Positions 19,283 through 51,460 of a stretch of 64,000 nt of DNA are shown piece after piece (the stretch's first letter is position 1; every line of letters starts with the position of its first letter). Below the pieces are notes generated by a model, which did no database searches, was not told where the DNA came from, and worked only from the letters and a program-made list of their open reading frames with translations. This stretch comes from Escherichia phage AnnaHegner_Bas87. The position numbers were made by a program, and so were the translations under genes. The stretch is from the sequence record PQ850594.1. One strand, written 5' to 3'.

Positions 19283-19578
19283 TGTATTCCTCTCTCCTTG
19301 AGAGCTTTAAGTAAACCATTATGGTTAGCAGCACAGGTTGTATAATTATCCTGATACCACTCAAGTGTTGTTGCAAATGCCACTCCCTGTGCACTCTGAA
19401 GTAAAGGGAGGTCTACATCACATTCAGCTTTTAGGTTTGTTGGTAAGGGCATTAGCTGCCTGCTGTTGTCGCTCATTGAACAAGCCATCAAACTAGAAGC
19501 GAGCAAAATCACCAAACAACTCTTTTGCTTTTTCTTTGTAAGCATTTTCTGCACCTTCTTGAGTGCTATGATAACCAA
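19279..19578 (-). CDS. o-spanin (outer-membrane lipoprotein, Rz1-like)
   Basis: signal peptide KKKQKSCLVILLASSLMAC with lipobox Cys, Pro-rich periplasmic part; true start probably internal Met. Confidence 0.5.
   Translation of the reverse strand: MVIIALKKVQKMLTKKKQKSCLVILLASSLMACSMSDNSRQLMPLPTNLKAECDVDLPLLQSAQGVAFATTLEWYQDNYTTCAANHNGLLKALKERGIQ
19448..19486 (-). repeat. duplicated spanin-junction segment, copy 2
   Basis: encodes GLFNERQQQAANAL in the HNH frame after its stop; near-synonymous copy of the i-spanin 3' end. Confidence 0.7.
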
Positions 19579-19843
19579 GCCAAATTACTTTGTTTTGATA
19601 TCCGATACGAGCACTCCATTTATTAATATCTGACCTGTATCCTACACCTTTTATTCCAGTTAAAGAGTTCTTTTGAACTATTTTATTGGCATTGTTGAGG
19701 ACAGGTGTTGCTTTTCTTAGATTGCTCCAAGAGTTATTAGACTTATCTAAATCTTTATGGTCTATTTGGAAATCGGGAATTTCTCCAGTTTTTATATACC
19801 AAGCAACTCGGTGAGCTTTGTATGTCTTTCTCTGAAAATTCAA
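19493..19843 (-). CDS. HNH homing endonuclease (HNH_3-type with AP2-like DNA-binding domain)
   Basis: HRVAW...IDHKDLDKSNN...NLR and AP2-like KWSARIGY...LGYH..EGAENAY; homologous N-terminal region extends upstream of the track start. Confidence 0.7.
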   Translation of the reverse strand: MNFQRKTYKAHRVAWYIKTGEIPDFQIDHKDLDKSNNSWSNLRKATPVLNNANKIVQKNSLTGIKGVGYRSDINKWSARIGYQNKVIWLGYHSTQEGAENAYKEKAKELFGDFARF

Positions 19844-19974
19844 TGTTACATAACCAGCTTTTGTTTTACACCCTGCAACCTTTCCTGCGAGTCTTGAGTT
19901 CCACTGAGCGCTCTTATCTTTAGAATGTTTCCAGTACAGAAGACCGGAAGCCTCGTCATAAGACAGATATTTAA

Positions 19975-20316
19975 TTAATTCTTTAATTTCAGTGCCTCCG
20001 CTGCTTGTTGTTGTCGTTCATTGAAAAGTCCTACATACTCATCGCTAGCACACACATTGTAAAAAACTGGCTTAGTCTTTTCATAATGCATCTCTTTGTA
20101 AATAGTTTCCGTGTTCTTCTTCCAGTTTGATAAACCAGTTAGAACTTTCTGAGCCACTTCATCAGCAGCCCTAGCCCTCTCAATCTCTATCTCGTGCTGC
20201 TTCTTCTCTTGGTCAAGAGTGTTGCTATCATTTCGATATTGCTCAAACTTCATTCCACCAAAGAAAATAAGAGCTGTGAAAATAAGAAAGCCTATATTGT
20301 TTTGAAGCTTTTCCAT
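19975..20316 (-). CDS. i-spanin (Rz-like)
   Basis: start moved to ATG 20316 (GGAG RBS; track start is GTG 20340 inside terminator hairpin); N-terminal TM, coiled coil. Confidence 0.5.
   Translation of the reverse strand: MEKLQNNIGFLIFTALIFFGGMKFEQYRNDSNTLDQEKKQHEIEIERARAADEVAQKVLTGLSNWKKNTETIYKEMHYEKTKPVFYNVCASDEYVGLFNERQQQAAEALKLKN
19996..20031 (-). repeat. duplicated spanin-junction segment, copy 1
   Basis: encodes GLFNERQQQAAEAL as the true i-spanin C-terminus. Confidence 0.7.
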
Positions 20317-40647: not shown

Positions 40648-42681
40648 TTAGTGTTTACCTTTACAGTAATCTGAATTACAGATCACCCTGTTTTCTTTGT
40701 TCAGTGAGCAAGTTTCTGCATCACGCCACGGAATTTGTTTATAACAGACTGCACAAAACCCAATTGAAGTCCAGAGGGCTTTTGTAAACTCAGCTGTTCG
40801 TTGTCCATCGTAACTGACAACTGTTTTTCGGAGAGAGGTTGACTTTTCTGGAAATGTCTCCGCTTTCTCAGCGGGTACCTCCTTTGGGGCATTCTTTGGA
40901 CCATAAACAGAGATGGCATAAGTATCACCACCACGTTTTTCCAAATACGAATTAGGAACATCTGCAAGTGTGATGTCCCCTGAACGTTTTGCTGAGCTGA
41001 CCATTACAATCATACGGCTAAGCATACGTTCATCAACACGAACAGCTACTTCAGGACGACGTGGGTTGGTTGTGTCTACTGCTTTAGTCCAAATATAACC
41101 TTCAGATAGAGTAACATTCTTTACTTTATCTTTGATTTCTTTGGAGCAGATATAACAAACGTCTTCACCACGAAGTTTACTCATTTCGTTGTCAAACTCG
41201 AAATCAGTCTTGACTTCACCACAGATAGCACATACACCCAAAGGCACATCTTCTTCCTCTTCAGAGGTTTTAGATAACGCTTCGAAGCATTCTGGATGCC
41301 AGTATGCCTGATAAGCAAACACAGCCTTACGAGCATCTTTCCAGTCAATGTGCTTATCACAACCACCACAGTCACCATGAGAGTGAGATTCCCAGAACTT
41401 ACGAGTGACTTCTACACCATTCTTAGTGATGAAGGAGTCCTCTGCATCAAAAGGGATATCATCATCAAAATCAGCAGTAGTGCTTTGAGGCTCCTTATCT
41501 GTAGCATCAACAAACAGCCCTGAAGTTAGTACGAGGCGAATCATACTGTCCACTTCGGAGATACAAGCGATTGTCCCGCGATATACTACCTTTGGGTTTT
41601 CAAGAGCCTTAAGATATTCATCTTTGGCTACGTTGTGAACATCCCCTTCGACATACTCTTGGGCTTTATCATCGTAGATGTAACCAACCATCTTACCACG
41701 ATCTGTGTTGTTATAAGCATGGAACTCGTGAGGAATAATATCCACACGACCATCACGACGATAAGGAAGACCACGATCGGCAGCCAGTTTGTTCTGGTCT
41801 TCAATCGCTTTACGACGACGAATGTCTCCGCTTGTCACGCCGGGCTTGTCGTCTTTGTTTCCGTAAATGTCGCTTGTGCTGCTGCTTGGTTTGTTTGTCT
41901 GTTGGTTCTGATAAAGAGAGGAGTTCGAGTAATAGCCGCCCCAGCGACTCGTTACCGTAAAAACCGGAAGCTTGTGCTCCACCTCTTGAACCAGAGTCAT
42001 ACGACTGTTAGACACATCAAAGATATACTCAGTTCCCACTTTACACTCGAAGTGGTCATTGATACGGTTCTTGTGGGATTTAGAACGCTCTAAAATCCAC
42101 ATAAGCATAGCTTCTTCAGAAGCCCCAAACCAATCCAAACCACAGCGGGCTAGGTGGAAAGGACGCTCATCATTACGGATAATGTGAAGCGTGTTGTCTT
42201 TAGCATCATGCCAAATCAAAGTGAATGCACCATCCAGTTTTTGGATAGTCTCTGCTGCTCCAATGGTGTTAATTGAGTGGCAGATGTTTTCACTATCAAC
42301 TTCGAAACGCTTACTGTCAGGAAGGAGATCTTGATCTAACAGGGTTCCATTATGAACCAGAGTAATATCCCCGTGAGTAAATGGGTGAGCATTTCGAGCA
42401 TTGACAGCCCCACGAGTGGCATGTCGGCTGTGACCAACAATCCACGAAGGAGGAACTACGTAGTTCGTAAGCCCTTTGGTAATATTTGTATATTCTGTCT
42501 GGAGCATAAAAGCATAAGAAGGAAGAGCTTCTTTATAAGAGAAGACTTGCTTTTCACCTTTACGCTGACCAAACACACCAGTTGAGTGCTGTCCACGGAA
42601 AACACCAGCATACAGAAGTTGGTTGAAAATGTCCAAATCTGCTGAGGTCATGTTGCCGCCAGCTAATACGATACCACAAAT
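40648..42681 (-). CDS. class II glutamine amidotransferase / Ntn-hydrolase-fold protein fused to Cys-rich C-terminal domain
   Basis: GATase-II signature (RGQHSTG, HSRHATRG, HNGTL); upstream in-frame ATT-TGT-GGT-ATC-GTA supplies the CGIV nucleophile, so start set to ATT 42679-42681 with AGGTGG RBS. Confidence 0.65.
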   Translation of the reverse strand: MCGIVLAGGNMTSADLDIFNQLLYAGVFRGQHSTGVFGQRKGEKQVFSYKEALPSYAFMLQTEYTNITKGLTNYVVPPSWIVGHSRHATRGAVNARNAHPFTHGDITLVHNGTLLDQDLLPDSKRFEVDSENICHSINTIGAAETIQKLDGAFTLIWHDAKDNTLHIIRNDERPFHLARCGLDWFGASEEAMLMWILERSKSHKNRINDHFECKVGTEYIFDVSNSRMTLVQEVEHKLPVFTVTSRWGGYYSNSSLYQNQQTNKPSSSTSDIYGNKDDKPGVTSGDIRRRKAIEDQNKLAADRGLPYRRDGRVDIIPHEFHAYNNTDRGKMVGYIYDDKAQEYVEGDVHNVAKDEYLKALENPKVVYRGTIACISEVDSMIRLVLTSGLFVDATDKEPQSTTADFDDDIPFDAEDSFITKNGVEVTRKFWESHSHGDCGGCDKHIDWKDARKAVFAYQAYWHPECFEALSKTSEEEEDVPLGVCAICGEVKTDFEFDNEMSKLRGEDVCYICSKEIKDKVKNVTLSEGYIWTKAVDTTNPRRPEVAVRVDERMLSRMIVMVSSAKRSGDITLADVPNSYLEKRGGDTYAISVYGPKNAPKEVPAEKAETFPEKSTSLRKTVVSYDGQRTAEFTKALWTSIGFCAVCYKQIPWRDAETCSLNKENRVICNSDYCKGKH

Positions 42682-42758
42682 TTTCTAATCCACCTGAAGG
42701 GTAAACCCTTTCATCTAATTAACCTTTAAATGCGCCCTGTATAAGAGCGCCCGTTGTG

Positions 42759-43859
42759 TTACAGTAGTCGTTCTAATTGCATTTCCAGATGGTCTGGAAT
42801 ATAACCAGTGACGTTATCATCACTGCTACCTGATTCACGCATCAATGCAAACATGTGACGAATTTCACGAACCGTTGCGATTCGAGTGCTTTCAATCTGA
42901 GGGGTGTAGTAGGTCATGATCTCTTCGTAGACACTGTTGGCATTACCGCGCACATATCCCAAGAAACCATAGAAGTCATTCATATCACGTAAGTTGATAA
43001 GGACTTCACCATCAGGGCCAGTCTGTTGCACACGAACACGACCAACCAAAGTCACAGATTGCTCACGACAGAAGAGAATATCACGAGCAAGACGATACCC
43101 TTCAGTGAGATCACTGTCTCTTGGAGTATAGTCTAGGGGTAGATGTTGAATCATAGGAGCGAAGCGCAGCTCATTCAACTTCTCAACATAAGCTTCATTG
43201 TCTAAATCTGCATATTCAACAGCCAGTTTCTTGAGAACCAAGAAGCGGTTGACCAGATTCAGAAGTTGGCTCTTTTTCCACTTCGGCTCTGAGATACGGA
43301 ACTCAACAGAACCAAATTGAGATAGAGGCAAAAGATTAAGGGAGGTATATTTATCCCAGCTATTAACAAGAGAGTGGAAGAAAGCTTCCCCGTCTCGGTT
43401 GAACGCTGACGAAGCATTCATAACTTGTGCTTGAACGACAGCAAAAGCTGGACAGAAGTTGCTACGATAGCGATGGTATCCAGAACATTTGAACATCATC
43501 TTTTCATAGAACGTCCATCCAAGAATAACTTTCTTAAGGATGTTACTATCAGCGTCACGCATATCCATATGAACATGAGTGGAGCAGCGCCAAGTTCCCT
43601 CGGCTCCAGAATCCTGTACTGCTTCACTCAGATTGTTAATAGCACGAAGTAATTCTTCACCGTTGTAAGGTCGTGCACATACTAATTCACAACCATCACG
43701 AAGAGAGCCATCTTCAGTACAAACCCACATATCAGCGTCAATGTCAGTTGTACCTTCGACTTCTAACTCAATACCAACACCACACTGAAAAGCAATACTT
43801 GGATGCGGTTCAGATAAGCGAGGGTTACGGTATCCAAAAACTTGTGCTACGGTTGTCAT
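42759..43859 (-). CDS. glutamine-synthetase-like amidoligase (GCS2/YbdK-like carboxylate-amine ligase)
   Basis: GVGIELEVEG N-terminal acidic strand and STHVHMD His motif. Confidence 0.55.
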   Translation of the reverse strand: MTTVAQVFGYRNPRLSEPHPSIAFQCGVGIELEVEGTTDIDADMWVCTEDGSLRDGCELVCARPYNGEELLRAINNLSEAVQDSGAEGTWRCSTHVHMDMRDADSNILKKVILGWTFYEKMMFKCSGYHRYRSNFCPAFAVVQAQVMNASSAFNRDGEAFFHSLVNSWDKYTSLNLLPLSQFGSVEFRISEPKWKKSQLLNLVNRFLVLKKLAVEYADLDNEAYVEKLNELRFAPMIQHLPLDYTPRDSDLTEGYRLARDILFCREQSVTLVGRVRVQQTGPDGEVLINLRDMNDFYGFLGYVRGNANSVYEEIMTYYTPQIESTRIATVREIRHMFALMRESGSSDDNVTGYIPDHLEMQLERLL

Positions 43860-44482
43860 AATGATTCCACCAACTCTACATTATATGATGACAGGTCTGA
43901 AGAAATATGCTTGAACTTCTCCAGAAGGTTTAAAGATTGACGACCATTGTCGCCATAACCAGCTTCAAGAAGCACGTTTCCAACGTAAGCCCCTTTGTAA
44001 TAAACTTTTCCATCGACAGGATTGATATAGATGAAACGAGTAACCAACCCTTCAAACTCTGGATTAAACAGGTTGTACACCAAATCACCCGGAATCGAAC
44101 GTCCGAGAGAAGGTGGAGTACCACGAAGTTTATTCCCCATCAAGCCTTTAGCTCGCTGACGAACAGGGTTGATATGGGTCCAGCTCACCATGTTATTACC
44201 ATGCTGAAGGTATCCTACATCTGGAGACTCCAGAATGAGGCTGTGATCAAACACTGGGATATTACTAACAATCTGACGTTCAAACTGACCTTCGGAGTTT
44301 TTAGTCCAGCGTTCCGCCTCAAACACTAAAGACATTTCAGCGTCGTGTGAGTAGTCGTCAATATCAAAGTTACCTTGCTGACGAACATCAAGCACATATA
44401 GAGGGAGGTTTTTACCATCAGGTGATCGCTGGGCAATCCATGTTCCACAATAATAGTGTTGAAAATCTCTTAACAAGCTCAC
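43856..44482 (-). CDS. hypothetical protein in ligase cluster
   Basis: ORF only; overlaps neighbours by 4 nt. Confidence 0.4.
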   Translation of the reverse strand: MSLLRDFQHYYCGTWIAQRSPDGKNLPLYVLDVRQQGNFDIDDYSHDAEMSLVFEAERWTKNSEGQFERQIVSNIPVFDHSLILESPDVGYLQHGNNMVSWTHINPVRQRAKGLMGNKLRGTPPSLGRSIPGDLVYNLFNPEFEGLVTRFIYINPVDGKVYYKGAYVGNVLLEAGYGDNGRQSLNLLEKFKHISSDLSSYNVELVESL

Positions 44483-44491
44483 AATATCACC

Positions 44492-45298
44492 TTATACAAT
44501 CTGGAGTTTAGAGGAGAATTTATCCGCTTCTTTAACATCGTTACTGTTGATGATGTTGTGAAGCTTTTCAATTGGAAGGCGAGAATGAAGTGACATCAAT
44601 ACTTCCATATCACAGCCTTGAACAACCTTATCAACTTGCTCATAAACAAACTTGCGGGTTGACTTCTCGCCAATCCAGAAGTTAGAAAGAGAACGATATT
44701 CAATACCGTAATCTTTGTAGCGAATGGCAGAAGCCTTTCCGTATAACTCTTTACGACGAGTGTCTTTATCCATGATCACAGCTGGCAAGGACAGGAAGTA
44801 ATCACACAACACACCCAACATCATTTGAGTCTGACGACTAATTTCCAGCGTACCAGTGACGCCAAGGTGAACATGACCGCCAGCAGTACGCAGACCTTTG
44901 TCTGTCGCTACTGGAGATGGGTTTTTCTGACCAGTGAAGGCGTTGAAATCAGGAGTACAACCAAATACAAAAGCTGACGGGTGGAATGATTCAAGCTCTT
45001 CTGAAGTGAACACATGAGAGCTAATCCCAAGCGCTGCTTCCAGACCACGATCATTCAGGATTTTGTTAGTCAGATCAATACCACGCTGAATATTATCATC
45101 AAACGCTTCAAATCCTTTCTGTGGGTTAATATCGAATTCAGCCAGAACGTTGTCTTCTTGAAGACGAACATCAGGGGCCAGATCAATTTTGTTGTCTTTA
45201 GAGCAGCCCAGCTTACCAGCCACAGAGGTGATAATACCAGAAGCAGTACGAACAAACATTTCAGGGTCAGAACCAATAAGGAAAGCACGCTTAGTCAT
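44492..45298 (-). CDS. second amidoligase-like protein (weak)
   Basis: start moved to internal Met (MTKRAFLIGSDPEMF); GSDPEMF acidic strand and GGHVHLGV motif. Confidence 0.4.
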   Translation of the reverse strand: MTKRAFLIGSDPEMFVRTASGIITSVAGKLGCSKDNKIDLAPDVRLQEDNVLAEFDINPQKGFEAFDDNIQRGIDLTNKILNDRGLEAALGISSHVFTSEELESFHPSAFVFGCTPDFNAFTGQKNPSPVATDKGLRTAGGHVHLGVTGTLEISRQTQMMLGVLCDYFLSLPAVIMDKDTRRKELYGKASAIRYKDYGIEYRSLSNFWIGEKSTRKFVYEQVDKVVQGCDMEVLMSLHSRLPIEKLHNIINSNDVKEADKFSSKLQIV

Positions 45299-51384: not shown

Positions 51385-51460
51385 TGGTGCACCCTACAGG
51401 ATTCGAACCTGTAACCAACGACTTAGAAGGTCGCTGCTCTATCCATTGAGCTAAGGGTGC
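51385..51460 (-). tRNA. tRNA-Arg (anticodon UCU), with encoded CCA
   Basis: cloverleaf folded by hand: 7 bp acceptor stem GCACCCT/AGGGTGC, D-arm GCTC/GAGC, anticodon loop CUUCUAA, T-arm ACAGG-TTCGAAT-CCTGT. Confidence 0.85.

Follow-up and report, generated by a model that had tools for sequence, protein, structure and literature searches.

Location and identity of the amidotransferase gene

The window analyzed here is a stretch of 64,000 nucleotides (nt) from Escherichia phage AnnaHegner_Bas87 (PQ850594.1), a phiEco32-like podophage of the subfamily Gordonclarkvirinae. Its minus strand carries the gene of a class II glutamine amidotransferase, an N-terminal nucleophile (Ntn) protein. Judged by the comparisons described below, this gene almost certainly begins translation at an ATT codon, so that the catalytic Cys would be residue 1 (Table 1). 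The open reading frame (ORF) listed by program (positions 40648-42651, 667 aa) starts at the ATG at 42651 and is without this Cys, as the original prediction, made from the letters of the window alone, had pointed out. From the upstream in-frame TAG, the minus-strand codons read AAA ATT TGT GGT ATC GTA TTA GCT GGC GGC AAC ATG. Just AAA and ATT stand between the stop and the Cys codon, in agreement with the earlier claim that no ATG, GTG, or TTG is available there. The AGGTGG Shine-Dalgarno (SD) sequence, which had been placed about 8 nt ahead of ATT, is indeed separated from it by 8 nt. For its pairing with the 3' tail of 16S, a duplex energy of -7.2 kcal/mol is predicted. Given the ATT start, the mature protein would comprise 676 aa from the Cys. 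Phage Bas86, which is 99.9% identical to the window around the gene start and forms a 91-99% identical mosaic with it genome-wide, has the gene annotated with the coordinates given in Table 1 for the full coding sequence (CDS).

Table 1. Features of the amidotransferase gene and its leader (window positions)
Feature	Position	Strand	Remarks
Full CDS, Ntn (class II) glutamine amidotransferase fusion protein	40648..42681	-	677 codons including the putative ATT initiator
ATT, putative initiation codon (read as formylmethionine, fMet)	42679..42681	-	Sole plausible start between TAG and the Cys codon
TGT, predicted catalytic Cys (residue 1 once the initiator Met is removed)	42676..42678	-	Invariant C1 in the family alignment
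Downstream in-frame ATG, codon 11	42649..42651	-	Start chosen by ORF finders and several GenBank records
In-frame TAG, two codons ahead of ATT	42687-42685	-	Direct reading
Shine-Dalgarno sequence AGGTGG	42690..42695	-	Followed by the 8-nt spacer ATTAGAAA (42682-42689) before ATT
Hairpin AAGGG-TTTA-CCCTT	42697..42710	-	Directly 5' of the SD; 3' end 15 nt before ATT
Mini-ORF, 9 codons, MKGFTLQVD*	42685..42714	-	In frame with the gene; stop 3 nt before ATT
Weak SD-like AAAGG of the mini-ORF	42723-42727	-	8 nt before the mini-ORF ATG
Hairpin after the amidoligase stop codon (42759-42761)	42732..42750	-	Without a proper T-tract

The N-terminal ~200 residues match the Pfam families GATase_6 (E = 2.7e-14), GATase_7, and GATase_4. 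Of the homologs in the protein collection, the best 120 were considered; 104 of these begin with MCG, and the Ile of the window protein is aligned to their Met1. Thus, the resemblance of I-C-G-I-V to the MCGI(V) start of class II amidotransferases, from which the original prediction set out, reflects homology and not chance. A search of PDB with the single sequence gave no matches, and a family profile was required: built from 41 members, it matched PurF and GlmS structures (E = 1e-13 to 1e-15) and aligned the family Cys to residue 1 of the mature chains of E. coli PurF (1ecb), GlmS (1xff), and B. subtilis PurF (1ao0). The positions C1, G2, R28, N110-G111, and D128 are invariant in the family. 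They correspond to the nucleophile (C1), the Arg (R28), the Asn-Gly of the oxyanion hole (HNG; N110-G111), and the Asp binding the amino group of the substrate (D128), and R28, N110-G111, and D128 align with the PurF and GlmS motifs RG, HNG, and D(S/T)E. By its predicted nucleophile and active-site motifs, the window protein is a bona fide class II amidotransferase. It shares with GlmS, PurF, and AsnB the conserved Arg, Asn-Gly, and Asp and a Cys nucleophile right after the initiator; in contrast to it, the solved class II relatives are encoded with ATG-TGY or, as B. subtilis PurF, carry a propeptide.

The C-terminal ~400 residues (about 280-677; window positions 40648-41840, minus strand) are Cys-rich with several CxxC pairs. 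This part matched no characterized family; the only hits were PHROG 4736, whose match covers residues 2-514, and a sub-threshold LIM-like zinc motif. The database names "L-glutamine-D-fructose-6-phosphate aminotransferase" and "glucosamine-fructose-6-phosphate aminotransferase" are thus not justified. The neighboring genes in the window encode a RimK-like ATP-grasp protein, an Amidoligase_2 protein, and a phiEco32-like COOH-NH2 ligase, and the same set of neighbors recurs in metagenomic loci. It is also that of the phiEco32-type/LUZ24-type neighborhood (amidoligase, ATP-grasp, COOH-NH2 ligase, GAT-II), which provides a functional context but no mechanism for the start codon. In the relative SU10, the amidotransferase was found by mass spectrometry as an early product with 9 peptides, a detection of the whole protein with spectra searched against the truncated annotation (PMC4281155).

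Conservation and annotation of the start

The start region was compared across the genera Suseptimavirus, Kuravirus (including phiEco32), and Nieuwekanaalvirus, which share ~74-90% DNA identity. The region has matches in at least 96 related GenBank records, from which about a dozen start regions covering the three genera were read. TAG-AAA-ATT-TGT is identical in every one of them. An alignment of orthologs had been proposed with the original prediction as a check, and in it ATT-TGT is conserved in all Gordonclarkvirinae examined. Since the relatives were sequenced independently, a sequencing error is excluded. This also settles the outcome that had been named as fatal to the prediction, namely orthologs with ATG directly before the Cys combined with an error in this genome: ATG does occur in many homologs, but the conserved ATT-TGT excludes the error.

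The eight codons for CGIVLAGG specify an unchanged protein sequence over the three genera, while four of the eight vary synonymously. According to the genus comparison, the ten codons upstream of the downstream ATG are under purifying selection at the protein level. The downstream ATG itself is not conserved. Kuravirus and Nieuwekanaalvirus have CTG or CTC in its place, and their following canonical start lies 23 to >100 codons further down; in the window, no SD precedes this ATG. Because this codon varies and CGIVLAGG is conserved, a conserved start at the ATG at 42651 is ruled out. Ahead of ATT, a stretch of 47 nt (42682..42728, minus strand) is invariant over the genera, whereas 21 of the first 40 codons show synonymous changes. 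In distant homologs, ATT or ATC independently abuts the Cys codon, with a GGAGGA-type SD 7 nt upstream. Initiation at ATT is therefore favored by all the comparisons made, including the alignment to Met1, the homology of Cys1, the synonymous-only change, the conserved ATT, and the ATT or ATC of distant homologs. At the sequence level, codon position, SD distance, and the conserved non-canonical codon all agree with a gene of the AUU/AUC-initiated class.

The ATT start of this gene is not new, since it is annotated in some records. The CDS begins at ATT in the phiEco32 record EU330206 (gene phi32_83, 2008) and in Bas86 and Bas88; in Bas86, the amidotransferase gene is the only 1 of 76 CDSs with a non-canonical start. 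In the records of SU7, IME267, and ECBP2, the CDS begins at the downstream ATG, and in those of Paul, 172-1, KBNP1711, and EP335 it begins 23 to >100 codons further down. In total, the gene is shortened at the cost of its Cys in 7 of 10 sampled Gordonclarkvirinae records and in that of Pseudomonas phage O4, and the truncated deposited or RefSeq entries (O4, Gordonclarkvirinae) start 10 to >100 codons late. Thus, in the majority of genomes deposited for these phages, the annotated gene lacks its predicted catalytic Cys. Standard gene callers miss what is probably the true start, and an enzyme cloned from the annotated one would then be dead. We found no paper in which an AUU start is attributed to phiEco32 or the amidotransferase family, in a search that did not reach the phiEco32 genome paper of 2008.

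Start codons, Shine-Dalgarno sequences, and hairpins across the family

Among the 120 homologs, 16 do not start with MCG. The DNA of ten was read. In nine, the Cys codon directly follows ATT or ATC, no canonical alternative is available in frame, and a strong SD, mostly GGAGGA, lies 5-8 nt upstream; the tenth (L013) has TTG. Gene callers had either truncated these homologs or extended them to a GTG or TTG inside the SD. Two samples were then used to count start codons. The general sample of 80 IMG/VR loci was based on tblastn and is thus independent of gene calling; it contained ATG 67 times, ATT 9 times, ATC 3 times, TTG once, and GTG not at all. For replication, a second, independent set of 65 new distinct start regions was collected from metagenomes in a clade alignment of the clade with the most mixed starts (ATG 37, ATT 10, ATC 10, TTG 5, GTG 2, ATA 0). 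The share of ATT/ATC is thus 12/80 (15%) in general and 20/65 (31%) within the one clade. For comparison, annotated bacterial genes start with ATG in ~82%, GTG in 14%, and TTG in 4% of cases (bioRxiv 10.1101/063800).

In a neighbor-joining tree, which was only roughly resolved, the ATT/ATC lineages are scattered over about ten positions between lineages with ATG. ATG-TGT is found in the sister family Grimontviridae (Privateer, Vp_R1, GAP52, SeKF_80), and an ATG start is also present in LUZ24, Lyrsu02, LAh_6, CW02, and Slicky01. The cultured Pseudomonas phage O4 (NC_031274, 301-303) shows the order hairpin-GGAGGA-7 nt-ATC-TGT without a canonical alternative, and its RefSeq CDS is shortened by 37 codons; its relative TC6 has a TTG start. 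ATT and ATC are more frequent than the far better initiators GTG and TTG taken together, and ATA does not occur, which suggests that a weak or fidelity-sensitive start was selected for and did not arise by drift.

The ATT/ATC members also differ from the ATG members upstream of the start codon. In the first set, the median SD duplex energy was -9.3 kcal/mol for ATT/ATC compared to -6.1 kcal/mol (p = 6e-4), and in the replication set it was -9.3 compared to -6.4 kcal/mol (p = 3e-5). Most other ATT/ATC lineages have GGAGGA with 7-nt spacing, in the position taken by AGGTGG in the window. The second linked feature is a hairpin with a 4-7 bp stem and a 3-6 nt loop, which abuts the SD and has its 3' end 12-16 nt ahead of the start codon. 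This hairpin was detected in 13/16 distinct ATT/ATC regions but only in 2/59 ATG regions (Fisher p = 4e-10), compared to a rate of 1.6% in shuffled sequence, and in the replication set in 10/20 ATT/ATC and 1/37 ATG regions (p = 4e-5).

An upstream gene ends within 4 nt (stop/start overlap included) in 1/16 ATT/ATC members versus 25/59 ATG members, and 15/16 ATT/ATC members stand alone after an intergenic gap (family loci L026-L196). When the ATG controls were limited to those with a true intergenic gap, the hairpin association stayed (13/16 versus 1/22); therefore, ATG members abutting upstream genes do not account for it. The stems have no common sequence: AAGGG/CCCTT is found in the window, and GAGCC/GGCTC, GCTAC/GTAGC, CTACG/CGTAG, and AACCTC/GAGGTT elsewhere. 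Hairpins, mostly terminators, also lie upstream of other genes in Bas86, and in this genome hairpin stability alone is not unusual. The specific trait is the hairpin directly against the SD in combination with an ATT/ATC start. In the literature, we found no description of ATT/ATC recurring throughout the family or of its association with a strong SD and a hairpin.

In the window, the leader contains a mini-ORF with the codons ATG AAA GGG TTT ACC CTT CAG GTG GAT TAG, which includes the hairpin (at codons 2-6) and overlaps the SD. The mini-ORF is invariant in Gordonclarkvirinae and absent from other ATT/ATC lineages, in which a conserved stop in the spacer (TAG, TAA, or TGA) mostly closes no ORF, with no start codon in frame. 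The leader motif is unique in the window. A sigma-70 promoter, an intrinsic terminator, and the motif tAATGTATAtA of the phage sigma factor (gp36), taken from PMC4281155, were considered as causes of the invariant leader, and none of them was found. Further upstream, the stem of the hairpin that follows the amidoligase gene differs between genera (GCGCTC/GGGCGC versus GTGCC/GGCAC) with pairing kept; a consensus terminator scan did not call this hairpin.

Proposed initiation at AUU and alternative explanations

We consider it very likely that the AUU at 42681-42679 is read as fMet and that the product is processed to expose the nucleophile Cys1 of the class II amidotransferase domain. Initiator tRNA would read AUU as fMet, and deformylase together with methionine aminopeptidase (or Ntn-type autoprocessing) would then expose Cys1. 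Removal of Met before Cys is expected because of the known specificity of methionine aminopeptidase, which removes Met before small residues, Cys among them. The start region is best fitted by a putative weak-start, strong-docking module resembling that of infC. In such a module, a strong, optimally spaced SD would dock 30S subunits well and partly offset the weak start codon, and the small hairpin directly 5' of the SD would keep SD and start accessible. The start codon would limit output, so that expression would be low and, as for infC, sensitive to initiation factor 3 (IF3) and initiation fidelity. IF3 discriminates against near-cognate start codons, which is the basis of infC autoregulation. 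In the lineage of the window, ribosomes terminating on the mini-ORF 3 nt upstream may add re-initiation events.

Published E. coli reporter data bear on this scheme. AUU, AUC, and AUA initiate at ~1-2% of AUG according to Hecht et al. (bioRxiv 10.1101/063800), and Osterman et al. (PMC3592434) measured near-cognate starts 6-8-fold below AUG. Weak hairpins flanking the initiation region stimulated expression in E. coli reporters (PMC3592434). It is nevertheless a tentative idea, and more likely wrong than right, that the series of hairpin, strong SD, ~7 nt, and AUU/AUC is a dedicated, selected module and an IF3-dependent phage counterpart of the infC sensor rather than tolerated drift.

Several points weigh against the proposed start and module. 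The case for the ATT start is built on sequence comparison, and the IF3 dependence is purely inferred. The hairpin statistics, including the counts pooled from both sets (23/36 ATT/ATC versus 3/96 ATG), treat distinct start regions as independent, without phylogenetic correction. Half of the ATT/ATC regions in the replication set have no hairpin; ATT/ATC regions of this kind mostly carry an extended UAAGGAGA-type SD. A count of base pairs on a hand-registered alignment (76/76 cells paired, 6/7 pairs changed on both sides) is circular with respect to covariation, as each row was registered on its own hairpin, and it was not used as evidence. The SD of the window itself is less strong than GGAGGA, the typical form in the other ATT/ATC lineages. 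For the 121-nt leader region, the minimum free energy fold (z = -1.44, not significant) is an extended weak structure, one internal loop of which takes up part of the SD.

The closest known system is E. coli infC. It likewise starts at AUU with an SD in front, as its orthologs do, and the stop of an upstream frame stands 3 nt before the AUU (PMC3592434). IF3-sensitive expression is attributed to this weak start. The two cases differ in that IF3 autoregulation of infC is experimentally established, whereas for the window gene it would be a prediction, and in that the upstream frame is the long thrS gene at infC and a 9-codon mini-ORF in the window. To our knowledge, a hairpin flanking the SD is not a described part of the infC site. 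In E. coli pcnB, an inefficient AUU start limits translation of the enzyme, as reported for Binns and Masters (2002) in PMC3592434. The start codon of pcnB varies among orthologs, as in the phage amidotransferase family, but the pcnB orthologs switch among AUG, GUG, and UUG (bioRxiv 10.1101/063800), unlike the phage family with its AUU/AUC and nearly absent GUG. Only infC and pcnB are confirmed as AUU starts in E. coli (bioRxiv 10.1101/063800).

Termination-reinitiation as the main route is the alternative that survives best. According to it, the mini-ORF (42714-42685) is translated, the ribosome stops at UAG, and it restarts 3 nt further on at AUU. The mini-ORF has its own ATG with AAAGG 8 nt upstream, it ends at the appropriate distance, and the whole element is invariant in Gordonclarkvirinae. 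The UAG-AAA-AUU geometry also matches UAA-GGU-AUU at the thrS-infC junction, and re-initiation and de novo initiation contribute about equally to infC expression by the estimate of Osterman et al. (PMC3592434). However, the mini-ORF has a weak SD and its codons 2-6 are taken up by the hairpin, and its invariance leaves no synonymous/nonsynonymous signal on whether the peptide is translated. In the other ATT/ATC lineages, the spacer stop usually closes no real ORF. Because those stops close no ORF with a start codon, re-initiation is not a general part of the module; as a general ATT/ATC trait it was rejected, and we keep it as a lineage-specific possibility. As the main route in the window, it appears rather unlikely.

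It is very unlikely that translation starts at the downstream ATG (42651), which would yield an amidotransferase domain without nucleophile that is inactive or repurposed. This ATG is the first canonical start in frame, and it is used by ORF finders and in the SU7, IME267, and ECBP2 records. Against its use stand its replacement by CTG or CTC in two genera, the purifying selection on the codons upstream of it, the conservation of all catalytic positions, and the missing SD.

Highly improbable is a read-through of the TAG, which would produce MKGFTLQVD-X-KI-Cys with a 12-residue propeptide that would cleave itself off as that of B. subtilis PurF does. Mini-ORF and gene share one frame and are separated by a single stop, and there is a precedent in B. 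subtilis PurF, which carries an 11-residue propeptide and whose mature chain was aligned from Cys1 (1ao0). Yet the TAG separates the mini-ORF from the Cys, so the gene does not conform to the propeptide type of Ntn proteins. Moreover, wild-type E. coli hosts terminate efficiently at UAG, and no suppressor tRNA was found in the window, where a single tRNA-Arg(TCT) (51385-51460, minus strand) and no other tRNA was detected. The other ATT/ATC lineages are without an in-frame ATG mini-ORF, and the strong SD is correctly spaced for ATT and not for the mini-ORF. Finally, that ATT is a sequencing error, or that a gene with an ATG start, as suggested by the ATG-TGT of Grimontviridae, has recently decayed into a pseudogene here, has a negligible probability: this was refuted by the conservation of ATT-TGT in all relatives examined across independently sequenced genomes, and the full-length ORF is intact and the protein was detected in SU10.

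If initiation at AUU is accepted for this family, the position of the start is fixed by protein chemistry. The family would then offer dozens of natural AUU/AUC sites with close AUG- and UUG-start relatives, a ready comparative series for studying by what means a weak start codon is made up for, or put to use, by its initiation region. In phage genes, AUU/AUC starts would also be far commoner than annotation suggests.

Other observations in the window

A second candidate ATT start lies elsewhere in the window, at 19987-19985 on the minus strand, with GGAGG 7 nt upstream. The ORF read from it (19496-19987, minus strand) has 164 codons and is predicted to encode a homing endonuclease with HNH_3 and AP2 domains. 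Its following canonical start is 48 codons further down; homologs in many phages align from residue 1-2, and Bas86 has only the last 116 aa annotated. Another HNH endonuclease distinguishes the two genomes near the amidotransferase gene. At the Bas86 locus L112 (45282-45770), an insertion of ~490 nt splits the CDS of the COOH-NH2 ligase, which is annotated as a join, and the window is without this insertion (~45269-45280). On one side of the site, 880 nt of the window (44400-45280) are 93.5% identical to Bas86, compared to >99% nearby. This segment looks like a co-conversion tract beside the homing site.

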